Shown here: positions 1 to 8,297 of the stretch, piece after piece | How positions within the stretch are numbered: position 1 is the stretch's first letter | Layout: every line of letters begins with the position of its first letter | Sequence record: PX853108.1 | DNA: 64,000 nucleotides | From: a phage | Direction: 5' to 3' (one strand) | The notes under the pieces: model-generated | Database searches by the model: none | What the model saw: only the letters and a program-made list of their open reading frames with translations | What the model was told of the DNA's origin: nothing | Made by a program: the position numbers and the translations under genes

Positions 1-1003
1 GTTTCTTAGGCATAGTGTCAATCATATCTGCTACTACCTGACGGTCTACATAAGCAATAGTGCATGGGTCAAGATAATCCAGGATTGATACGGATAAAAA
101 GCCAGATTTCTCATAATGGCTCCATAGCTCTTGTACCTTCTCCAGGTTACCTTCAATTTCCCCATATTCTGATGGGCCTTCATCGCAGAGTTCTCGCACA
201 GCTTCCACTAGGTCACGGTCGAAGTTACAACGACGCAGCATCTCACGTACTACCATCCCATCAATAGAGTGGGTGATGTTAGCAGAGAGCATACGAGTCT
301 TCTCTTCAGTACCCTGAACCATACGAGTGATATCGAATGGCTTACCTAAGAAGTTAACAGTCTGTACTTCAGGGACCATGACCTTAATGACAGCGTGGAA
401 GTTGTCAGGCAGTACCCATACGTAACGGTTGGCATCCGGGTTACCACATTGCAGTAAGAACTTGTTAAGTGCCCAAGGACCACTAGCAACAGTTTCCATT
501 ACATTCTCAAAAGTCTTGAGACGAATACCTTCACCGAATACTTCTTTAGGCTTGGCTTCTGAGCCGTAGAATGCAGTCATAACTGCCTGCTTAGTTTCAC
601 TACGTTTAATACGCGATGCTTCACCAAGGATGTCCAGCATCTTATGATAGATAACTGTGTAAGCATCACGACGTAATGGCTTACCATTCTCTCCCATGTA
701 ATTAACTACGTTACACAGTTCAGCAGCAGAACGGTCACCAGTCAGACAGGCCAGTAACTGCAAACCAGATGATGTAGCATCCAGGGCTACGGCATAACCA
801 ATAGGCTTACCTGCTTTCATATCTTTCCATGCATTTACACCTGCAAAGAACAGAGCAGAATCCTCTGCTTCATCTACCAGATTAAGCAGGTTAGCTTCGT
901 TCTCATCGAACCAGGCAATACGCTCATCCCATGTCTTTTTATCCAAGCCATAGTTATTGGCGATATCTACTTTCAGGTATTCACGAGCGGTTAACAGTTG
1001 CAT
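1..1003 (-). CDS. T7-like single-subunit RNA polymerase, catalytic (large) subunit of a split phage RNAP II; C-terminus runs off the window
   Basis: Minus-strand frame open from ATG at 1003 (RBS AAGGAA upstream, in-frame stop at 1034-1036) to window edge; translation carries T7-RNAP-like motifs AGKPIG, motif A ALDATSSGLQ, motif B KQAVMTAFYGS, motif C ITHSIDG. Not in supplied ORF track because it is truncated. Confidence 0.8.
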   Translation of the reverse strand, partial: MQLLTAREYLKVDIANNYGLDKKTWDERIAWFDENEANLLNLVDEAEDSALFFAGVNAWKDMKAGKPIGYAVALDATSSGLQLLACLTGDRSAAELCNVVNYMGENGKPLRRDAYTVIYHKMLDILGEASRIKRSETKQAVMTAFYGSEAKPKEVFGEGIRLKTFENVMETVASGPWALNKFLLQCGNPDANRYVWVLPDNFHAVIKVMVPEVQTVNFLGKPFDITRMVQGTEEKTRMLSANITHSIDGMVVREMLRRCNFDRDLVEAVRELCDEGPSEYGEIEGNLEKVQELWSHYEKSGFLSVSILDYLDPCTIAYVDRQVVADMIDTMPKK

Positions 1004-1060
1004 TTTATGTTCCTTTTGCTTCTTGGCTCCCCACTATGGAGAGCCTGCTTATTGGATGGA

Positions 1061-1306
1061 TTAGCCAGCATTAAATGATGATAATACTATTCCTGGTTCC
1101 ACACCTTCGGTGGCAATACCAATGTACTTAACTTCTACCTGTTCTGGTGAACTACACCAGCCTGACCATAGCTCGCCCCATTTGCCATCGGGGTTTATCT
1201 GACGTGCTTCCTCTTCGGTAGCAGCAGCTACCACAGCGGAATCATATGTATCCCACTCATTACGCTCATTCTGGCTAATAAGCCATAGTTTTAATAGCTT
1301 ACCCAT
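1061..1306 (-). CDS. hypothetical protein (81 aa) lying between the two RNAP II subunit genes
   Basis: ORF in track; same strand as flanking operon; no recognisable motif. Confidence 0.4.
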   Translation of the reverse strand: MGKLLKLWLISQNERNEWDTYDSAVVAAATEEEARQINPDGKWGELWSGWCSSPEQVEVKYIGIATEGVEPGIVLSSFNAG

Positions 1307-1619
1307 TTGAGATTAGTCCTCTTGGTTCGTATATGGATTTATTTACGGTTACGTTTAGCTTCAGCTTCGCGTTTCATTGCTTCATTGATACGCTTTAATA
1401 CCAACTCTCTATGGGCATAGAAGTCAGCTACTGCACGATGATTAATCATTGTTTACTAACCCTTTATCTTAGATGGTTACTACGTCAGCAGTTAATTTAT
1501 AAATAATGGTCTTATTGCTTGGATTGTTTGTCTTAAACAGCTTTTCGAAATGAATGCATTTTTCTAACGTACCGGAGTAAACACATTCTTCATTAACCCA
1601 TAGCTCATAGGAACCAATG

Positions 1620-2438
1620 TTAGTCTTCATTTACTAACTCCTTATCAGCGAACTCTAGTACAGCTTTGTTGTAGCTGGTTCCCTGATAGTTGATGTGGTA
1701 ACCACAGGCATAGGTACGCCCACGTTTGTCATATTTGTGAGCCAGCGAGAAGTTATTACCTTCTTTGGTCACTAGCTCCATTACTTCCTTAGCTGTACGG
1801 CTGTACTTCTCAAAGGCTTTAACACGTTTCTCGTAGTCCTGACGGGTTTCACCTTCTTTAGGTTTATCCATATTAGGACGGGAGTCTTTTACATAGTTAG
1901 CAACGTCCCAGTTAATACAGAGACGTTGATTGTTCATACGGTTGATGTGGTCAAGACAGACGTCCATCTCATGATGGTTCTTCTTGAGGATGATGCTACC
2001 TCTGCTTTCGTAGTAACCAGTATCACGATTACACTTAACAGGCTTAGGAGCACTTACGATAGGTAATGGATACTGGAATGCTTCCAGTTCCATCTGTACA
2101 TCTTCACTAATCTCATAGATAACACCGAACTTGTCGATGGTAGGGTCATAGTTGAAGCAGTCATTCTCTGCCATCTTGTACAGACAGTCAGCGATGTACT
2201 GAGCATCATCTGAGTGACTCATAAGAGAGCCAATCATAGTTTGGATGTCAGCACGTTTATGTAAGGCAATCTGCACCATTGCATCAATGAGCAGCTTATA
2301 ATCAATTTCTAAATAGGCAGCGAATGCCTTAAAGTCAATTTCTTCGGAGTCCTCGAATTCCTTCCTCATGCGAGGCAAGAGCTGGTTTTTATTGAATAGT
2401 TTTTCGAGTTGCTTCTGATGTTCAATAGATGAGTACAT
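1620..2438 (-). CDS. T7-like RNA polymerase small (N-terminal-equivalent) subunit of split RNAP II
   Basis: 272 aa; C-terminal segment YDKRGRTYACGYHINYQG aligns with T7 RNAP DWRGRVYAVSMFNPQG (DxxGR motif region); immediately downstream of hairpin promoter at 2464-2485. Confidence 0.7.
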   Translation of the reverse strand: MYSSIEHQKQLEKLFNKNQLLPRMRKEFEDSEEIDFKAFAAYLEIDYKLLIDAMVQIALHKRADIQTMIGSLMSHSDDAQYIADCLYKMAENDCFNYDPTIDKFGVIYEISEDVQMELEAFQYPLPIVSAPKPVKCNRDTGYYESRGSIILKKNHHEMDVCLDHINRMNNQRLCINWDVANYVKDSRPNMDKPKEGETRQDYEKRVKAFEKYSRTAKEVMELVTKEGNNFSLAHKYDKRGRTYACGYHINYQGTSYNKAVLEFADKELVNED

Positions 2439-2463
2439 CGCTTATTCTCCTAAATGTGATTAA

Positions 2464-2485
2464 TAACCAAAAGCTGCGGAGCAGC
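2464..2485 (-). promoter_or_regulatory. N4 virion-RNAP-type hairpin promoter (AACC-N4-GCTGC GGA GCAGC); predicted +1 at 2468
   Basis: 5-bp stem, 3-nt GGA loop, G at -8 and -11, CC at +1/+2 on template (plus) strand; same architecture as sites at 6918 and 7483. Confidence 0.6.
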
Positions 2486-2525
2486 TATTACCTAACGCTT
2501 AGTCCAAAAGTTAAAGTGACTTCAT

Positions 2526-2702
2526 TTATTGCTCTACTCTCATTGAAATCCAATTGTATAATTTACGCTTTGCATACTCTGCGTTAGCTTCAATTATTTC
2601 TCTGTCTTCTGGATCTTGAGAACCAGACCATGATAGAGCAACTTGTGCTGCTACATGTTTACGTATTAAGGATTGTAGTTGACTGCATTCTTTTTTAGTC
2701 AT
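2526..2702 (-). CDS. small hypothetical protein (58 aa)
   Basis: Manually translated ORF (below 60 aa cut-off of track); ATGA start/stop overlap with upstream gene 2699-3058. Confidence 0.3.
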   Translation of the reverse strand: MTKKECSQLQSLIRKHVAAQVALSWSGSQDPEDREIIEANAEYAKRKLYNWISMRVEQ

Positions 2703-3058
2703 GAGGAGGTTCCCCAGTAGTTGTAAGCATCACCTAAGTATTTACGCCATGCTTCTGGTAATAGCACGTTGCCAGTTACATTAATGAATTGGTATGGGTC
2801 TAAGTAATCATTACTCATGACTTTAAAGTCCCACTGTGGATTAGAAGATGCATAGGCAATGAAGCCCTCAATAAAGCCATAAATAGCACCCTCTTTGATA
2901 CGGTTACCATTGCCATCCTTTACCGGTATGGCAAAGCTATTGCCGTAATGACCATAGGCCATACCCCAGCGAGCACCGTGTTTCTTATAAGCTAATTTGG
3001 CAGCAGCATTAGTATGTTGCCCAAGTACATTGGTAGTGAATACTAAGATTTCTTTCAT
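2699..3058 (-). CDS. hypothetical early protein, possible small Rossmann-like fold
   Basis: 119 aa ORF in tightly packed minus-strand array; motif ILVFTTNVLGQHTNAAAKLAYKKHG; function unassigned. Confidence 0.45.
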   Translation of the reverse strand: MKEILVFTTNVLGQHTNAAAKLAYKKHGARWGMAYGHYGNSFAIPVKDGNGNRIKEGAIYGFIEGFIAYASSNPQWDFKVMSNDYLDPYQFINVTGNVLLPEAWRKYLGDAYNYWGTSS

Positions 3059-3255
3059 TTACATGCCTCTCTGTTGTAAGTATAAGCATCGTGTGTGGAC
3101 ATATTGTTATGATGACGAGTTACTTCTAAGTAAGTAAGAGCATATTCATGGTCACGTTGTTCTTTCTTGGTTCGGCAATGACCACATTTATCATCCCATT
3201 GGGATACATAGCCTTTACCACATTTGCATTGCTTATCCATTAGGATTCTCCACAA
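3055..3255 (-). CDS. Cys-rich zinc-ribbon-like small protein
   Basis: 66 aa; CxC and CxxC pairs (CKCGKG...CGHC); overlaps neighbours by 4 nt. Confidence 0.4.
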   Translation of the reverse strand: MWRILMDKQCKCGKGYVSQWDDKCGHCRTKKEQRDHEYALTYLEVTRHHNNMSTHDAYTYNREACK

Positions 3256-3613
3256 AGTAGTTATACATAGCTTTTACTAGCTTCTCTTTAATAACCTCAC
3301 CATGACAAGGTTTTGGATAACAGAAGCACTGTAAGGCTAATCCTTTCTCGTCAATGGCTTTATTACCCAGACGATTAAGTTCATCCAATACAACTGGATT
3401 CCCTTTATCAATCTGTTCTTGTAACCAGACTATATACTTAGCAATTACTTGCTCTCTGGTTCCATGTTTACCAATGACAAATGGATTACCTAATGGTGAA
3501 CCACGTCCAATATACTCACCTGATTTACCGTGATGTTTATTAACAATGATAATTGGACGGGCAGATACACCCAGTAAAGCATTGGTGTCATCACCTAATG
3601 ACATAATCTTCAT
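3233..3613 (-). CDS. DUF4326-like small protein (assignment from memory of motif)
   Basis: 126 aa; motif GRGSPLGNPF followed by CFCYPKPCHG; domain family recalled, not searched. Confidence 0.45.
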   Translation of the reverse strand: MKIMSLGDDTNALLGVSARPIIIVNKHHGKSGEYIGRGSPLGNPFVIGKHGTREQVIAKYIVWLQEQIDKGNPVVLDELNRLGNKAIDEKGLALQCFCYPKPCHGEVIKEKLVKAMYNYFVENPNG

Positions 3614-3924
3614 GGTTTAAGTACCTGGAATGGGAACACAGGACGTTTACTACGCCACTGGTTCATAGCTAATTCACTAGTTTCAGAACCATCATGTAAG
3701 TCATAGATAAATGAGATTACATAGTCTGGTTCTTCCGGGAAGTTCTCTGTAGAAAATGGTAGACCTGATTCTTTAAGGATAGGAATCAGTGGTGATTCAG
3801 CATTACAGTACAGAGTAAACTCTTCATTGAATGCTTGGCTTGTCTGAGATACATAATCAATATTACGCATCATCTTATCTACATCAGTAAATGTAGCATC
3901 ATGAACTACTAAAATAGTTTTCAT
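3610..3924 (-). CDS. hypothetical early protein
   Basis: 104 aa ORF, 4-nt overlap with neighbours. Confidence 0.45.
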   Translation of the reverse strand: MKTILVVHDATFTDVDKMMRNIDYVSQTSQAFNEEFTLYCNAESPLIPILKESGLPFSTENFPEEPDYVISFIYDLHDGSETSELAMNQWRSKRPVFPFQVLKP

Positions 3925-4112
3925 ACTGGCTCCTTGCCCGTAAATGTTACTACTTTTCCTGACATATTCCGTATGGTTACCTGTGCTGAGTTAACATCAG
4001 CAAATTGCTCTGCAACCCAGTTAAGCATCTCAGGGTCATTATTTAATTGTTTTTTAATCACAGTTTTACTATCTGCTGTTACTAAAGTGATTTCATAATT
4101 TTCAATATTCAT
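3921..4112 (-). CDS. hypothetical early protein
   Basis: 63 aa ORF, operon packing. Confidence 0.4.
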   Translation of the reverse strand: MNIENYEITLVTADSKTVIKKQLNNDPEMLNWVAEQFADVNSAQVTIRNMSGKVVTFTGKEPV

Positions 4113-4366
4113 ACTACTTTCTCCAGTGTTAGGTAGACGTTATTATCGACAATACTCAAATCACAGAAACCAATCTCTTCTTGTCTCCCAGAGGATACCC
4201 AGATATTGTTCTCCGTTAGCTTAGGCTTCTTAGAGAATCCTATTAATGAGGTATTAGCACTCTTATATTGACGAGGTAGTAATGCTATATACTTAACCCA
4301 ATGTGGTACTTGAATAGTATGTTTCATATATTCCACAGTCTTACCAGTAGGGTATGTAATAATCAT
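4109..4366 (-). CDS. hypothetical early protein
   Basis: 85 aa ORF, operon packing. Confidence 0.4.
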   Translation of the reverse strand: MIITYPTGKTVEYMKHTIQVPHWVKYIALLPRQYKSANTSLIGFSKKPKLTENNIWVSSGRQEEIGFCDLSIVDNNVYLTLEKVV

Positions 4367-4723
4367 TTAGTACCTCACAACATATACAGGTTTATTAAGC
4401 TTATTCATGATATCAATCATGTGCTTGGTTCCTTTGGATTTACCATCCCAGAAACATACAGCAGCATCTGCAAATTCACCCATTTCCTGGTTACGTATAT
4501 AACCAGCAGACTTTCTATGCTTATCCCAGTTAGCTGGGAAATTATGAATAGGCATTTTGTTATTAGCCCATAGGCTGTATGCAAGCATATCTGCTCCACG
4601 AGCCATACCACATACTAATTCAGGATTAGGGTCAATCTTACCTTTCTCCACTAAATCCATTAATACGGTAATCATTACTTGGATATTTACGAAGTCTCTG
4701 CCACCAGCTACTATTAGTTTCAT
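4367..4723 (-). CDS. SLOG/LOG-like (DUF2493-type) Rossmann-fold protein (assignment from memory of motif)
   Basis: 118 aa; MKLIVAGGRDF ... GMARGADMLAY ... FWDGKSKGTKHMI pattern typical of SLOG-superfamily small proteins. Confidence 0.45.
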   Translation of the reverse strand: MKLIVAGGRDFVNIQVMITVLMDLVEKGKIDPNPELVCGMARGADMLAYSLWANNKMPIHNFPANWDKHRKSAGYIRNQEMGEFADAAVCFWDGKSKGTKHMIDIMNKLNKPVYVVRY

Positions 4724-4941
4724 TTCTGATAACCTTCTATGAAGTTAGTACGACGAATAAGCTGAGTAGATGCCCTAACAGCCATCTGTTTGAACTCATC
4801 TTTGTGCTGATTTTCCAACACCTTAGCCCATTCTTCATGGTTCCGTCGTTTCTGTAGGATACGACTACACTTCTTATGATTAGCAACTCCTCTTCCTTTC
4901 TTACAGATTGGGCATATTCCATAATTAGTGCTGAACAACAT
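4720..4941 (-). CDS. zinc-finger-like small protein
   Basis: 73 aa; CPICKKG...HKKC motif. Confidence 0.4.
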   Translation of the reverse strand: MLFSTNYGICPICKKGRGVANHKKCSRILQKRRNHEEWAKVLENQHKDEFKQMAVRASTQLIRRTNFIEGYQK

Positions 4942-4946
4942 TTTGC

Positions 4947-5177
4947 TTACTCCTTGGTAATGTGATTGGCAGTATAGAAGTTATTAATCTCTGATTGGGT
5001 AGTATCAGCATAACCGGATACACCGGTTTCTTTATTAACCCATTTATCGAAGCTCTCACTGTATCCAGGCGTACTAACTTTTACCCATGTACTGGTTCCA
5101 AAGATTGTTTTCTTCTCTACTTCTGCACCAATACCACGTTCATTATCTGCAAATCGTATTACTTTATATTTAGCCAC
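4947..5177 (-). CDS. hypothetical early protein
   Basis: 76 aa ORF in array. Confidence 0.4.
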   Translation of the reverse strand: MAKYKVIRFADNERGIGAEVEKKTIFGTSTWVKVSTPGYSESFDKWVNKETGVSGYADTTQSEINNFYTANHITKE

Positions 5178-5478
5178 TTAGTGCCTCCATTAATATTTTA
5201 CGAATAACATTTACATCAGATTCAGTACCAATTAAACCAACAGGCTTACCTGTACTATCTGTTACAAAGGATGCAATCCTTTCCATCTCTGCTGTAATTA
5301 GCTTGTCACCACTAATAAGACGATTACGAAGGTAAGCTTCATAGGCTACTTCTATATCCTCTACTGTGGTTCTTTCATTACGAGCGAATGGATTACTTAA
5401 TGGGAATGGTAAGTGGATACGTATATTCCGGTCAGCTATCTTAGCTGAATGAGGAAGTATACAAATAATTTCATTCAA
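5170..5478 (-). CDS. hypothetical early protein
   Basis: 102 aa ORF in array. Confidence 0.4.
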   Translation of the reverse strand: MNEIICILPHSAKIADRNIRIHLPFPLSNPFARNERTTVEDIEVAYEAYLRNRLISGDKLITAEMERIASFVTDSTGKPVGLIGTESDVNVIRKILMEALSG

Positions 5479-5521
5479 GGTTATTTCTCCTATTTAAATA
5501 CATATCTAACTATTCAAGAAT

Positions 5522-5552
5522 AAAAAATAGGAGCCTCCTATTGGAGGACTCC
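5522..5552 (-). terminator. rho-independent terminator (minus strand)
   Basis: On minus strand CCUCC-AAUA-GGAGG hairpin followed by UAUUUUUUAUU. Confidence 0.5.
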
Positions 5553-5615
5553 CAGTTCTACTAATGCACCATAGGTTAACAGTACAAACATGGTTAATGT
5601 GATAGGCCAGTTCAT
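5538..5615 (-). CDS. candidate 25-aa hydrophobic peptide (MNWPITLTMFVLLTYGALVELGVLQ)
   Basis: Manually translated; start overlaps stop of upstream small ORF as ATGA; stop lies inside terminator stem. Confidence 0.2.
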   Translation of the reverse strand: MNWPITLTMFVLLTYGALVELGVLQ

Positions 5616-5743
5616 TTGAATGCATCCGGGTGATTGAAGGTAATAATCTTACGTACTGGTTCAGATGTCTGTTTCTTAGCAGCCAGTCTCTCCTTCATCT
5701 TCTGTACGTCAGATTTATTACCCATGATTAATGATTTACGCAT
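5612..5743 (-). CDS. candidate small basic protein (43 aa)
   Basis: Manually translated ORF; overlaps end of 5728-5910 ORF by 16 nt so start uncertain. Confidence 0.2.
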   Translation of the reverse strand: MRKSLIMGNKSDVQKMKERLAAKKQTSEPVRKIITFNHPDAFK

Positions 5744-5910
5744 GATTTAGTGCTCCACATAAAGTTAAAAGGTTTATTGTTACGTACAATTCTTACAACC
5801 ATTTGATAGCCATTGAGCTGCACAACACCATAGTGTCGTTTCTGTACACCAGTGTGATACCTACGAAAGATACACTCTTCAATGGCATCATCTATGTTAG
5901 TGAATATCAC
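5728..5910 (-). CDS. hypothetical early protein
   Basis: 60 aa ORF in track. Confidence 0.35.
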   Translation of the reverse strand: MIFTNIDDAIEECIFRRYHTGVQKRHYGVVQLNGYQMVVRIVRNNKPFNFMWSTKSCVNH

Positions 5911-5954
5911 TGGTTCCTCCGTAATATTGGCAGTTAAGCACAGGTGAATAACGT

Positions 5955-6107
5955 TTACACATCTCCACCTGGTTCATCTCTACCACGAGCATCACTCCCT
6001 ATGACTGCAAACATACCAATAATTACACCTACAGCTAATAACCATGGAAATGCAGCCACTAGCAGTATCATTAATAAAGTACACAGAATCTCTGCCAGTA
6101 GCTTCAT
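5955..6107 (-). CDS. candidate small membrane protein (50 aa, two hydrophobic segments)
   Basis: Manually translated MKLLAEILCTLLMILLVAAFPWLLAVGVIIGMFAVIGSDARGRDEPGGDV; RBS AAGGATAA upstream. Confidence 0.3.
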   Translation of the reverse strand: MKLLAEILCTLLMILLVAAFPWLLAVGVIIGMFAVIGSDARGRDEPGGDV

Positions 6108-6111
6108 AGCA

Positions 6112-6375
6112 TTATCCTTTGTGTAGTTTACGGATTTGTTTACGAGTAGGTTTAGCTACAAAGAAGTGGTCATAGCATTGACCATTCTCATCTTTTACAG
6201 ATACCTGCCAACGAGCATCATAAGTCATCTTACTACCGTACATGGCCATTATGTTAATCAGCCTAGTTGGATTATAACGGTTACATATTGTACGCATAAT
6301 GGTTACTCCTTCATCTAATATAAATCTATATCTATCTGGATACTGTTTCAGTACCCTTCGTCTAAAGATACTCAA
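6112..6375 (-). CDS. hypothetical early protein
   Basis: 87 aa ORF in track. Confidence 0.4.
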   Translation of the reverse strand: MSIFRRRVLKQYPDRYRFILDEGVTIMRTICNRYNPTRLINIMAMYGSKMTYDARWQVSVKDENGQCYDHFFVAKPTRKQIRKLHKG

Positions 6376-6398
6376 AAAGTAGAAATAGCTTATCGTCT

Positions 6399-6430
6399 AG
6401 TTAAAAATAAAAGACTCCCCGAAGGGAGTC
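6399..6430 (-). terminator. rho-independent terminator (minus strand), UUCG tetraloop
   Basis: GACUCCC-UUCG-GGGAGUC followed by UUUUAUUUUUAA, just downstream of gene 6441-6821. Confidence 0.6.
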
Positions 6431-6440
6431 TAGTGATTGA

Positions 6441-6821
6441 TTAGAAAGTCAGTTTACGAGCATATTTATTCTCGTCTGCTGGGATGTCAGCAGCCTCTGC
6501 TTTCACACGACGAAGTTGAACTTGCAGGTTAATGATACCTTCCTCACCTGGTTCCAGGTTCTGAGCATACGCGATTAACTGTTCCAGCAAGTCGTTCTGT
6601 GCACAACGCATAGCACGGAAGTCAGCATTGCTGCTATTAGTAGGCAGCGGTTCCTGAGTATCCAGTGGAATACCAGTAGGCAGTGAGATGAATTTCTCAT
6701 CATCAGAGCCTTCGTTAGCTACATAACCAATGTTCAGCCAGAACTGAGCTTTTGGTTTGTCAGTTTTAGCAGTGGTAGCAGCAGCGTTAGATTGACCGAA
6801 AGTGAATTTTTGAATAGCCAT
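6441..6821 (-). CDS. early protein (126 aa), first gene of a hairpin-promoter transcription unit
   Basis: ORF in track trimmed to internal ATG at 6821 with RBS GGAGAG; about 100 nt downstream of predicted +1 at 6922. Confidence 0.5.
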
Positions 6822-6917
6822 TTTGTACTCTCCAGATTTATGTGATTTACGGGTGAACTCGTCGGTGAGAACACCCAAACAAAAGGATAAAAGTTCAATG
6901 ATTAGTGGATGCATTTA

Positions 6918-6939
6918 CATCCTTTAGATGCGGAGCATC
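6918..6939 (-). promoter_or_regulatory. N4 virion-RNAP-type hairpin promoter (CATCC-TTTA-GATGC GGA GCATC); predicted +1 at 6922
   Basis: 5-bp stem, GGA loop, -8G/-11G, +1/+2 CC; near-identical layout to recalled N4 P2 CATCC-AAAA-GAAGC GGA GCTTC. Confidence 0.65.
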
Positions 6940-7009
6940 TTTCTTTTAAAGATAGTGCGAGTTAGTTAACTTAAAGTAGATAGTTATCTACTTTTGACTA
7001 TCTATCTAA

Positions 7010-7040
7010 TGTTCAAAACAGGAGACTCCGAAGAGCCTCC
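7010..7040 (-). terminator. rho-independent terminator (minus strand), UUCG tetraloop
   Basis: GGAGGCUC-UUCG-GAGUCUCC followed by UGUUUUG, downstream of gene 7049-7372. Confidence 0.55.
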
Positions 7041-7048
7041 TATGTGAC

Positions 7049-7372
7049 TTATTCTTTAGTCAGGATGTCGATGACTTTGGAATATTCTGCGTTATAGATA
7101 CGAGCGTTCTCTGAATCCTTGCAGAAGTCCTCGATACTTTTCTTACGCAGAGTCTCAGTCATAGCTGTTTCCTCTGCCAGTTTATTAACAAAGGTATGCA
7201 TTTCTAATTTAGTACGAATGGCTTGTTTCTCTGCCATCGTACTAACATATGAATTAAGCATACCTACTGCTTTAGTTGCTGTGCTGAATGTATCTGCAAC
7301 AGTAGTAGCAGCTGAGTTAACAGTACCAAGTAAAGTTCCTGCGGTCATACGTACAGTAGCTTGAGTAGTCAT
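7049..7372 (-). CDS. early protein (107 aa), first gene downstream of outermost hairpin promoter
   Basis: ORF in track trimmed to internal ATG at 7372 with RBS GGAGAT; about 115 nt downstream of predicted +1 at 7487. Confidence 0.5.
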   Translation of the reverse strand: MTTQATVRMTAGTLLGTVNSAATTVADTFSTATKAVGMLNSYVSTMAEKQAIRTKLEMHTFVNKLAEETAMTETLRKKSIEDFCKDSENARIYNAEYSKVIDILTKE

Positions 7373-7482
7373 GATGATATCTCCAATAGTTAATGAATAA
7401 TGAGGTTGCCTGTGGATGCACAGGCACATCGTAAGGGATACATGTCCAATGGCTCATGAGATAAGGAGCTTACGATCTCGCA

Positions 7483-7504
7483 TATCCGTAACATGCGGAG
7501 CATG
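7483..7504 (-). promoter_or_regulatory. N4 virion-RNAP-type hairpin promoter (ATATCC-GTAA-CATGC GGA GCATG); predicted +1 at 7487
   Basis: 5-bp stem, GGA loop, -8G/-11G, +1/+2 CC on template strand. Confidence 0.65.
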
Positions 7505-7960
7505 TAGACGAACGAAGTTCGTCAAAAATGTTTTATAAAGATGTAGGCGCGTGCGCAAGCCGAAGGCTTGCGTGCGTGCCGAAGATATGCACATAAGCCC
7601 ATGGGCTTGCTTGCAAGCCTAGTGTGTGTAACGTGTAAGGTGGGGTAGGGTAGTGGCTACACGGTCAACATACCGGGGGGGATGGTTGAGTGTAAGGGTG
7701 TAGCCCTAGGTGTAACACTATAGCCATACATAGCTATCACAATTTTGACATGCAAAAATATTATAGGCACTATCTCTATAAGCAGATAACTTTGAGGTAC
7801 TAACCTGAAAGATGGTTGAGGTATCTATCCTCTATTCATCATAGCGTTTGATACTTAAAACCTCATACAGCTTACCATTTACAAGTAATGGTCCTCCCAC
7901 TTCTATGAAAGCCAGACTGTGTACTATCACTGGTTCAGGTAAGCCCTTGACTGTTACATA
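7505..7960. other. non-coding, locally GC-rich, hairpin-dense region; candidate genome terminus / terminal-repeat or origin region
   Basis: No ORF; hairpins GACGAAC-GAA-GTTCGTC (7507-7523), GCAAGCC-GAA-GGCTTGC (7555-7571), AAGCCC-ATG-GGGCTT; G-run ccggggggg; sits just upstream of the outermost early promoter. Confidence 0.3.
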
Positions 7961-7967
7961 CCACATG

Positions 7968-8297
7968 TTAATCCTTATACGCAGTTAAATAGGAGGGAGC
8001 ATACACCAAGTGAGGGGTTTGTAATTCATTCGTAATACCAAAGGTTAGAGAGTACTTATCCGTATTCACATGCCAGGGGGAGTACATGTAAGAGGACCAT
8101 GGTAGTTCCTTTCCTGGTTCAAGAACTTCTACAATAGTTTCCTTATTTAGTAATAAAGCTAATCCTTTAACTTCGTGTAGTGTTTGTTCATCCGGTACTA
8201 GGATAATAGGAGTGAGCCTACCTGGTACAAGGTCTTGTAAGGTTGTATGGGTAGTGGGGTTAGAACTACGAGCATAACCTATCTTAGTAAGTTTCAT
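7968..8297 (-). CDS. paralog family member 1 (109 aa), unknown function
   Basis: Shares core IILVPDEQTLHEVKGLALLL ... VEVLEPGKELPW ... SPWHVNTDKY with six neighbouring ORFs. Confidence 0.55.
   Translation of the reverse strand: MKLTKIGYARSSNPTTHTTLQDLVPGRLTPIILVPDEQTLHEVKGLALLLNKETIVEVLEPGKELPWSSYMYSPWHVNTDKYSLTFGITNELQTPHLVYAPSYLTAYKD

Follow-up and report, generated by a model that had tools for sequence, protein, structure and literature searches.

RNA polymerase II (RNAPII) of phage N4 is the closest described system to the locus studied here. This polymerase of the middle genes is composed of gp15 (269 aa; N-terminus, thumb and DX2GR) and gp16 (404 aa; motifs A-C), and its cofactors are gp1 and gp2 (PMC4496689). 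The enzyme is active and was crystallised with gp15 and gp16 alone, as a two-chain heterodimer (PMC4496689), and its structures are available as PDB 6DT7, 6DT8 and 6DTA (see also Willis et al., 2002, cited in PMC4496689). The reason for a heterodimeric polymerase was called unresolved in the same report. In the roseophages DSS3phi2 and EE36phi1, small insertions of ~2 kb were described between RNAP1 and RNAP2 in 2009, compared with 47 bp in N4 (PMC2784036). In addition, a non-splicing mobile insertion split the DNA polymerase g39 into two expressed pieces in the G7C-like phage 10Gb, and some G7C-like phages carry a group I intron with a homing-endonuclease ORF in g16 (bioRxiv 10.1101/542787).

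The RNAPII locus occupies positions 1-2486, on the minus strand, of a 64-kb window (the whole stretch of DNA that was analysed). The source phage is a Gamaleyavirus, that is, a G7C-like, N4-like coliphage, and 64 matching phage records of this type share 88-95% DNA identity with it. The two polymerase genes are, judged by their sequences, orthologues of N4 gp15 and gp16 and are predicted to code for a heterodimeric T7-like RNAPII. This agrees with the initial annotation, which had proposed a two-gene split T7-like polymerase, and is supported by matches of both halves to PDB 6DT7 and PHROG and of RNAP2 to Pfam. The distance between the two genes, given there as about 600 bp, was measured as 616 bp from the RNAP1 stop codon (1620-1622) to the RNAP2 ATG. 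As described, this spacer holds an 81-aa ORF (o81, 1061-1306) and two micro-ORFs of 53 aa (o53, 1469-1630) and 36 aa (o36, 1339-1449). The annotation was silent on the minus-strand orientation and on the window edge that cuts RNAP2. Plus-strand ORFs (up to 67 aa) over the polymerase genes were rejected as spurious, being antisense to strongly conserved coding sequence. The locus shares with N4 the position of the split, the early-region setting downstream of gp1 and gp2 homologues, and the P3-type hairpin, identical in both, that precedes the first of the subunit genes, whereas the N4 spacer is empty and the window spacer contains three small genes. The locus is ordinary, as the split polymerase was already known and its three small genes are of a kind gained and lost among close relatives; small ORFs between the subunit genes have been noted since 2009. 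Taken together, our results indicate, with a probability of about 0.88, an early RNAPII unit that carries optional small cargo genes behind a hairpin promoter, with turnover of these cassettes by recombination.

RNAP1 (1620-2438, minus strand) codes for 272 aa, comprising the N-terminal domain, thumb and DxxGR region of the gp15 orthologue. It matched chain A of PDB 6DT7 over residues 3-269 (E = 9.4e-119) and phrog_2166, "N4-like RNA polymerase" (E = 4.8e-118), and its amino-acid identity is 100% to RNAP1 of ECBP1 and 66% to N4 gp15. Residues 210-272 align with T7 RNAP 388-455, in which DKRGR corresponds to T7 DWRGR (421-425) and NYQG to T7 NPQG, and the gene ends with TAA at the equivalent of T7 residue 455. 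The product therefore does end in the DxxGR/NPQG region, as was claimed.

RNAP2 (2-1003, minus strand), the gp16 orthologue, contains the palm and fingers with motifs A and B. Its ATG lies at 1003-1001, and the window edge leaves the first 334 of ~405 codons. These 334 residues matched chain B of PDB 6DT7 (E = 2.1e-149, residues 1-334), phrog_2051, also annotated "N4-like RNA polymerase" (E = 2.1e-139), and the Pfam family RNA_pol PF00940 (E = 1e-12), and the identity is 67% to N4 gp16 and 97% to the ECBP1 orthologue. Motif A, ALDATSSG, aligns with T7 AFDGSCSG (T7 D537), and motif B, RSETKQAVMTAFYGS, aligns with T7 RSVTKRSVMTLAYGS (T7 K631/Y639). Motif C had also been assigned to this ORF; A and B are present in the window, whereas motif C, which is VHDCF at residues 341-345 of the orthologues from ECBP1 and N4, falls 7 codons past its edge. 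The presence of motif C and the integrity of RNAP2 are thus suggested by the 97%-identical orthologues. The downstream ORF had been said to begin with the AGKPIG segment, which requires correction: this string is residues 64-69 of RNAP2, just before motif A, and does not correspond to the T7 segment, as T7 "AKGKPIG" aligns instead with the C-terminus of RNAP1 (ADKELVNED). Residue 9 of RNAP2 corresponds to T7 residue 459, and the gene has its own ATG and Shine-Dalgarno sequence. The split point is at T7 residues 455-459, the same across all Schitoviridae loci surveyed. By orthology to the crystallised N4 enzyme, the two chains are probably active as a heterodimer in the transcription of middle genes.

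Promoters of N4 have a stem of 5-7 bp and a loop of 3 nt. A perfect hairpin, AGCTGC-TCC-GCAGCT followed by TTTGGTTATTAAT, was found at 2472-2486 on the minus strand, 34 nt upstream of the RNAP1 ATG, and N4 gp15 is preceded, at a distance of 42 nt, by an identical hairpin. N4 has two further hairpins of the same type, upstream of gp1 and gp2. Hairpins with a TCC or TTC loop occur only five times in the whole 64-kb window, all on the minus strand and all in the early region, where they sit upstream of the gp1 homologue (7061-7372), the gp2 homologue (6444-6914) and RNAP1. The two cofactor homologues show 67-68% identity and are located ~4-5 kb upstream. The RNAP1 hairpin is kept in 18 of 20 sequences (the window itself and 17 of 19 related loci). 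It can be read as a putative homologue of the N4 early promoter, used by the virion RNA polymerase, that we take to be P3, the numbering of the N4 hairpins as P1-P3 being our assumption. A scan for sigma-70 promoters gave fewer sites than shuffled sequence and was not informative, which is to be expected of early genes of the N4 type. The hairpin-promoter principle itself has been described for N4 (PMC4496689).

The content of the slot between the subunit genes differs among relatives. No cassette is present in N4 (47 bp) or EC1-UPM (56 bp), and the slot contains o53 only in ECBP1 and U1G, o36 only in CU10EC and locus L016, o79 only in ZQ2 and locus L021, o53 and o79 in IME11 and 24-32N, and o38 and o80 in E20 and F22. 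One metagenome contig, L024, carries o53 and o36 without o81. Homing endonucleases of the HNH_3+AP2 or NUMOD1 type occupy the slot in pSb-1, HK2 and loci L011, L013 and L015 (HNH_3+AP2 in L011 and L015, NUMOD1 in L013), and they begin at, or 1-2 nt from, the RNAP1 stop. The order of the cassettes is constant among close relatives, and their subsets vary among phages with RNAP1 95-100% identical. No phage record covers at least 80% of the spacer seen here or combines o53 with o36. The o53-o36 junction pattern had no match in IMG/VR and one in metagenome data, the contig without o81; within the records, IMG/VR and metagenome data searched, only the window has the full stack of three cassettes. 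The other Gamaleyavirus phages (ECBP1, IME11, E20/F22, CU10EC, ZQ2, pSb-1, HK2) resemble the window in cassettes, junction repeats and RNAP2 leader, whereas each carries at most two of the three cassettes or has a homing endonuclease instead. In Schitoviridae the spacer ranges from 47 bp to ~3.5 kb (IMG/VR loci) and contains lineage-specific ORFs; the roseophages and other members with separated genes also have small ORFs here, but these are not homologous to o53, o36 or o81. The contrast drawn in the initial annotation with a simple adjacent pair is thus misleading, since the two genes are as a rule set apart by small ORFs in Schitoviridae, with the 47-bp gap of N4 as the exception (PMC2784036). 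In the comparison with relatives of N4 gp15/gp16 that it proposed, the intervening ORFs were not conserved with the polymerase. The small genes are optional cassettes and not conserved polymerase partners.

The junctions of the cassettes suggest how they may be exchanged. Copy A of a junction repeat (1631-1646, minus strand; GATAAGGAGTTAGTAA) consists of the last RNAP1 codons, which form the Shine-Dalgarno sequence of o53, and the o53 ATG (1628-1630) overlaps the RNAP1 stop codon in an 11-nt gene overlap. In relatives, the same junction sits before whichever cassette is first; in CU10EC, E20 and L016 the o36 ATG is placed directly in the RNAP1 3' end. Copy B (1450-1468, minus strand; GATAAAGGGTTAGTAAACA) is a degenerate repeat of the RNAP1 3' end directly before the o36 ATG, and in IME11 the same repeat precedes o79. 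The consensus, GATAAGGAGYTRGTAAAnnATG, is a copy of the RNAP1 3' end. Cassette breakpoints are sharp among the compared relatives. ECBP1 bears the mark of a deletion: its o53 runs at the 3' end into the final codons of an o81-type gene. In comparison with IME11, the cassettes have a dS of 0.9-1.1 and the flanking RNAP1 a dS of 0.27, so the cassettes have a history separate from that of RNAP1. On the other side of the slot, ECBP1-type relatives share the 57-nt RNAP2 leader (1001-1057) at 98-100% identity, irrespective of the cassettes in front of it. The leader includes a stem-loop (1025-1045, minus strand; centroid fold -15.8 kcal/mol, z = -2.45) with a 9-bp stem, GGCUCUCCA-UAG-UGGGGAGCC, located ~20 nt before the ribosome-binding site of RNAP2; in its place, N4- and U1G-type phages have GAGCC-AAGA-GGCTC. 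This stem-loop was rejected as a promoter of the virion polymerase, as it has a 9-bp stem without a TCC/TTC loop, unlike the five early-region hairpins.

The recurrence of endonucleases is also what would be expected if the spacer were a leftover landing site of mobile elements, with the small ORFs as cargo or leftovers, and such an insertion may have caused the original split of the polymerase. At least two types of endonuclease domain occupy exactly this slot in relatives, the split point is identical in all Schitoviridae loci examined, and in L011 a duplicate of ~45 nt from the RNAP1 3' end lies between an HNH gene and the o38 that comes after it. Mobile insertions of this kind are known from the split g39 and the g16 intron with its endonuclease ORF in G7C-like phages (bioRxiv 10.1101/542787). 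Similar to g39 of 10Gb, an essential polymerase is made here as two polypeptides around inserted DNA, with endonucleases at the split site in relatives; however, the RNAPII split is ancient, family-wide and structurally characterised, and the window insert has no nuclease. None of its three ORFs shows a nuclease domain in Pfam or similarity to endonucleases, simple homologous recombination can account for the cassette junctions, and the origin of the split is too ancient to be reconstructed from the present data. As a full explanation the landing site is unlikely, and it complements optional cargo in an early RNAPII unit and does not replace it. A more elaborate version, which we consider a little more doubtful still, is that the slot is a still-active scar of the polymerase-splitting insertion, in which endonucleases land at the RNAP1 stop, cassettes ride along by means of the duplicated RNAP1 3' end, and the polymerase has recruited one or more cassette proteins as modulators (o53, or the o81 family, which occupies the slot in two genera).

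The intervening ORFs had been proposed to be an insertion or accessory factors of the polymerase. The insertion part is supported, as the cassettes come and go in all combinations and are replaced by homing endonucleases, and the part on accessory factors fares poorly. If one or more of the three proteins were strain-specific accessory or regulatory subunits of RNAPII, their position between the subunit genes might secure a fixed proportion to the polymerase. The overlap of the o53 start with the RNAP1 stop and the apparent location of all five genes on one transcript would be consistent with this, as would the basic tail of o36, which could bind nucleic acid, and the o81-family member in the same slot of a Kaypoctavirus. 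Moreover, N4-like RNAPIIs need small cofactors that differ among lineages, such as gp2 and Drc (PMC7145618). However, N4 RNAPII was purified and crystallised as gp15 and gp16 only (PMC4496689), the slots of N4 and EC1-UPM are empty, and the known cofactors gp1 and gp2 are encoded elsewhere in the window. Every cassette subset occurs among phages with RNAP1 95-100% identical, endonucleases take the place of the variably present small ORFs in other relatives, and the o81 family occurs in unrelated types of phage, beside a tail sheath gene in a Vibrio phage or ThyX in an Acinetobacter phage. A role as polymerase subunits is therefore very unlikely.

The substitution patterns indicate that o53, o36 and o81 are genuine protein-coding genes under purifying selection. 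The 53-aa protein of o53 (cassette 1; 1469-1630, minus strand) is restricted to Gamaleyavirus, where it is present in 24 of the 64 matching records, and it matched phrog_15352 over profile positions 1-53 of 53 (E = 1.2e-33), with only five clusters in a database of 5.8 billion proteins and a dN/dS of 0.12-0.18. The o36 gene (cassette 2; 1339-1449, minus strand) codes for a 36-aa micro-protein with a basic tail (MINHRAVADFYAHRELVLKRINEAMKREAEAKRNRK). Its annotated orthologues are in CU10EC, E20 and F22, and it is also found in the IMG/VR loci L011 and L016 and in contig L024; its dN is 0.02-0.05 against a dS of 0.47-0.80, with 11 synonymous and 2 non-synonymous differences from CU10EC. The 81-aa product of o81 (cassette 3; 1061-1306, minus strand) belongs to a widespread family of small phage proteins and matched phrog_5444 over profile positions 1-82 of 82 (E = 3.7e-23), with a dN/dS of 0.10-0.40. 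The family occurs in 14 Gamaleyavirus records and in Vibrio, Rhizobium, Pectobacterium, Acinetobacter and Klebsiella phages, including the same slot of another genus (Klebsiella Kaypoctavirus VLCpiP4b, 33% identity), and none of 211 homologues has a Pfam domain. Its recurrence at the slot in Kaypoctavirus and the putative translational coupling of o53 to RNAP1 may point to a functional link with the polymerase. The AF2 model of o81 (pLDDT 87.5) had no convincing match among solved folds, an Icd-like identity was sub-threshold (E = 0.14) and was rejected, and the exact o81 sequence had no record in public assemblies. Scans of Pfam, NCBIfam and PADLOC gave nothing for any of the three proteins.

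It could be argued that the spacer is a non-coding regulatory region in which the micro-ORFs arose by chance and at most the 81-aa ORF is a gene, because o36 and o53 are very short, lack a curated Pfam, NCBIfam or PADLOC family and were left unannotated by some depositors, as in the deposited record of 24-32N, which omits o53. The strong excess of synonymous over non-synonymous changes in both ORFs argues against this. In addition, both frames are kept even where RNAP1 is only 84% identical (L016), a Shine-Dalgarno-like sequence lies at the correct distance before each of the three small ORFs, and the match of o53 to phrog_15352 is highly significant, so that chance ORFs are hardly credible. 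That the spacer is an intron- or intein-like element, whose removal restores a single-chain T7-like polymerase, has a negligible probability despite the group I intron in g16 of some G7C-like phages, since RNAP1 terminates at a stop codon, RNAP2 is equipped with a ribosome-binding site and an ATG of its own, the spacer contents are non-homologous between relatives, the N4 crystal is a two-chain heterodimer (PMC4496689) and the g16 intron site of the preprint (peptide QAVMTAFYGSEAK) is uninterrupted in the window (bioRxiv 10.1101/542787). An Rfam scan of positions 1-8000 returned no family at the gathering threshold, on which basis a spacer intron or riboswitch was rejected.

In the preferred reading of an early RNAPII unit with optional cargo, the injected virion RNA polymerase would read the P3-like hairpin promoter and produce one early mRNA covering RNAP1, o53, o36, o81 and RNAP2. 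RNAP1 and RNAP2 would assemble into the heterodimeric T7-like RNAPII, which would transcribe the middle genes with the cofactors gp1 and gp2. The slot between them may turn over quickly by recombination. The upstream cassettes each start within a repeat of the RNAP1 3' end, which would supply the Shine-Dalgarno sequence and start codon and allow translational coupling, and the same repeat might serve as the short homology for the gain and loss of cassettes. Most likely, o53, o36 and o81 would act as non-essential, host-directed early proteins of the takeover or counter-defence type and not as polymerase subunits.

As a discovery the locus has small value, since it is a textbook N4 RNAPII with a solved structure. 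It does answer whether the intervening ORFs are conserved with the polymerase: they are not. All eight presence/absence combinations of the three ordered cassettes exist among near-identical phages, and the way they are joined, by a reused repeat of a 3' end and ribosome-binding site, neatly illustrates how genes are shuffled as modules in a lytic phage in nature. Moreover, the homing endonucleases that recur at the exact split point provide a testable lead on why this polymerase is heterodimeric, the question raised in PMC4496689.

The 272-aa ORF at 1620-2438 codes for RNAP1, the orthologue of N4 gp15, and the gene for RNAP2, the orthologue of gp16, has its ATG at 1003-1001 and continues past the left window edge, so that only its first 334 codons are visible. 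The spacer from RNAP1 to the RNAP2 ATG, hereafter the slot, is 616 bp. The coordinates of the initial annotation for this locus were correct; all of the genes concerned lie on the minus strand, and the second is cut by the window edge, two points that it did not mention. RNAP1 matched chain A of PDB 6DT7 ('RNAP1', 269 aa; E = 9.4e-119), and the visible part of RNAP2 matched chain B ('RNAP2', 404 aa; E = 2.1e-149), the two chains being gp15 and gp16 of coliphage N4. Matches were also obtained to phrog_2166 ('N4-like RNA polymerase', 4.8e-118), phrog_2051 (2.1e-139), and PF00940 in Pfam (E = 1e-12). These matches bear out the proposal of a split T7-like polymerase of the gp15/gp16 kind. In N4, gp15 and gp16 form the heterodimeric T7-like RNA polymerase II, which transcribes the middle genes (PMC4496689). 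The region matched 64 phage records at the DNA level (88-95% identity), with hosts that were all Escherichia, Shigella, or Klebsiella, and all matching records with taxonomy checked are members of Gamaleyavirus (genus; G7C-like; Schitoviridae, Enquatrovirinae). The RNAP1 protein of ECBP1 is 100% identical to that of the window. The core reading is correct, although the enzyme has long been known and its structure is solved.

The polymerase motifs were examined by direct alignment with T7 RNA polymerase. The DxxGR/NPQG region was confirmed in RNAP1, in which residues 210-272 correspond to T7 388-455, DKRGR to DWRGR, and NYQG to NPQG. Motif A (ALDATSSG; AFDGSCSG in T7) and motif B (RSETKQAVMTAFYGS; RSVTKRSVMTLAYGS in T7) are present in RNAP2 within the window, and motif C, VHDCF, occupies residues 341-345 in ECBP1 and N4 gp16, that is, seven codons past the window edge. 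Contrary to what had been stated, RNAP2 does not begin with AGKPIG: the string is found at residues 64-69, directly before motif A. The T7 segment AKGKPIG aligns to the C-terminus of RNAP1 (ADKELVNED), and T7 residue 459 corresponds to RNAP2 residue 9. By this alignment, AGKPIG in RNAP2 is a chance look-alike of the T7 segment and not the start of the protein.

Three small ORFs on the minus strand fill the slot: o53 (1469-1630, 53 aa), o36 (1339-1449, 36 aa), and o81 (1061-1306, 81 aa). The substitution pattern indicates that all three are genes. The dN/dS was 0.12-0.18 for o53 against four relatives and 0.10-0.40 for o81, while for o36 11 synonymous and 2 non-synonymous changes were counted against the CU10EC orthologue, and the o36 frame was retained in a lineage with an RNAP1 only 84% identical. 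Each is preceded at the proper distance by a Shine-Dalgarno-like sequence, and the ATG of o53 overlaps the RNAP1 stop (ATGAAGACTAA). PHROG families with no assigned function were matched by o53 (phrog_15352, 1.2e-33) and o81 (phrog_5444, 3.7e-23).

The initial annotation had asked whether the small ORFs are conserved with the polymerase. They are not, and the slot contents vary among relatives. The slot is empty in N4 (47 bp) and EC1-UPM (56 bp); it holds o53 only in ECBP1 and U1G, o36 only in CU10EC and locus L016, and o79, the counterpart of o81, only in ZQ2 and contig L021. Pairs are found in IME11 and 24-32N (o53 + o79), in E20 and F22 (o38 + o80, counterparts of o36 and o81), and in metagenome contig L024 (o53 + o36). 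With the window included, the three cassettes were seen in all eight possible combinations of presence and absence, always in the order 53-36-81, and all of these occur among near-identical phages (ECBP1, L002; CU10EC, L006; ZQ2, L017; IME11, L001; E20, L005; L024; EC1-UPM, L018). Among the 64 matching phage records, o53 occurred in 24, o36 in 3, and the o81 family in 14; the latter was also present in 14 records of unrelated phages (Vibrio, Rhizobium, Pectobacterium, and Acinetobacter) and in one Klebsiella schitovirus. The spacer genes are thus variable insertions, not conserved polymerase partners. No record of the phage database contained all three cassettes together or covered at least 80% of the window spacer; the only new element is the stacking of all three known cassettes in this phage.

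In Klebsiella phage VLCpiP4b (Kaypoctavirus), an o81-family member (L084 2501-2752; 83 aa, 33% identity, E = 3e-16) fills the equivalent slot, immediately before RNAP2, although the genus is a different one. Its divergence is much greater than that of the polymerase genes on either side, which points to separate acquisition or else to rapid evolution in situ. In addition, E20 (L005 456-686), 24-32N (L007 449-682), and HK2 (L019 812-1045) carry an extra ORF of ~77 aa between the P3-type hairpin upstream of RNAP1 (described below) and RNAP1 itself. This ORF, which the window lacks, makes a further small slot of variable content within what is probably one transcription unit.

The junctions bear marks of this turnover. 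Whichever cassette follows RNAP1 starts within the last ~20 nt of that gene (GATAAGGAGYTRGTAAAnnATG), and in stacked cassettes a degenerate copy of the RNAP1 3'-end sequence recurs after the first one, as before o36 in the window (1450-1468, minus strand) and before o79 in IME11; in L011, a ~45-nt copy follows the HNH gene. Breakpoints relative to relatives are sharp (o53 cassette ~1628-1451, o36 1450-1339, o81 ~1338-1058), and the 57-nt RNAP2 leader (1001-1057) is 98-100% identical regardless of the preceding cassette. The o53 gene of ECBP1 has a chimeric 3' end, joined to the final codons of an o81-type gene, which is the mark of a deletion from a stacked ancestor. Compared with IME11, the cassettes show a dS of 0.9-1.1 and the adjoining RNAP1 0.27, indicating that the cassettes have their own recombinational history. 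The repeat may have two uses: it would provide the ribosome-binding site with the context of the start codon, and also a short stretch of homology through which cassettes are gained and lost.

A perfect hairpin (AGCTGC-TCC-GCAGCT, then TTTGG) lies at 2472-2486 on the minus strand, 34 nt upstream of RNAP1. N4 has an identical hairpin upstream of gp15 and two others of this type, one ahead of gp1 and one ahead of gp2; these three N4 hairpins are presumably P1-P3, the early promoters used by the virion RNA polymerase. Perfect hairpins with a TCC or TTC loop of 3 nt occur only five times in the window, always on the minus strand (7554-7572, 7507-7523, 7491-7505, 6926-6940, and 2472-2486): three upstream of the gp1 homologue (7061-7372, minus), one upstream of the gp2 homologue (6444-6914, minus), and one upstream of RNAP1. 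This placement mirrors that in N4. The hairpin-promoter mechanism has been described (PMC4496689). The P3-type hairpin before RNAP1 is conserved in the window and in 17 of 19 related loci, making 18 of the 20 sequences examined. Given this hairpin and its conservation, RNAP1, o53, o36, o81, and RNAP2 most likely form a single early transcription unit. The homologues of gp1 and gp2, known RNAPII cofactors, lie outside the slot, and from their positions the early region starts near 7.6 kb and extends to the left. Hence the window shows a ~72 kb genome in reverse orientation and circularly permuted, with the rest of RNAP2 just beyond coordinate 1. The highly conserved RNAP2 leader also contains a 9-bp stem-loop, GGCUCUCCA-UAG-UGGGGAGCC (1025-1045, minus; -15.8 kcal/mol, z = -2.45), whereas N4- and U1G-type relatives have a smaller hairpin, GAGCC-AAGA-GGCTC, in which the common GAGCC arm is paired with sequence on its opposite side. 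The stem-loop of the window may act in processing, attenuation, or translational control.

A role of o53, o36, and o81 as polymerase subunits, with which the o81-family gene (33% identity) in the same slot of Klebsiella Kaypoctavirus would agree, is unlikely. Their probable early expression, apparent dispensability, and mosaic distribution, together with the occurrence of o81 in unrelated phages, make it most likely that they are early proteins that are not essential and act on the host.

The wider family was surveyed in 29 IMG/VR loci, of which 27 were measurable, with RNAP2 identities between 100% and 32%. These loci share one split point, and the spacer ranged from 47 bp to ~3.5 kb with lineage-specific ORFs. 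For roseophages, Zhao et al. (PMC2784036) reported some 2 kb of small insertions separating RNAP1 from RNAP2, against 47 bp in N4. Together, these data indicate that subunit genes separated by small ORFs are the known norm and that the adjacency in N4 is the exception. For G7C-like phages, a preprint has reported 22 loci of indels or replacements, an intron in g16 that is spliced out, and an insertion that is not spliced and leaves the DNA polymerase to be expressed in two parts (bioRxiv 10.1101/542787). Free-standing homing endonuclease genes occupy the slot in pSb-1 (L003/L012), HK2 (L019), L011/L030, L013/L029, and L015/L042, and are of the HNH_3+AP2 type, NUMOD1-containing, or a 204-aa protein annotated 'endonuclease VII'. 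RNAP2 of pSb-1 (L003 3041-4257) is annotated as two overlapping CDSs, and in tblastn residues 1-310 (83%) and 250-334 (98%) matched overlapping DNA in different frames, so that this record looks like a mosaic, a frameshift, or a sequencing problem. The endonuclease genes start at the RNAP1 stop codon or at most 2 nt from it, which is the exact polymerase split point. Their repeated presence at this point is the one lead worth keeping, as it bears on the origin of the heterodimer.
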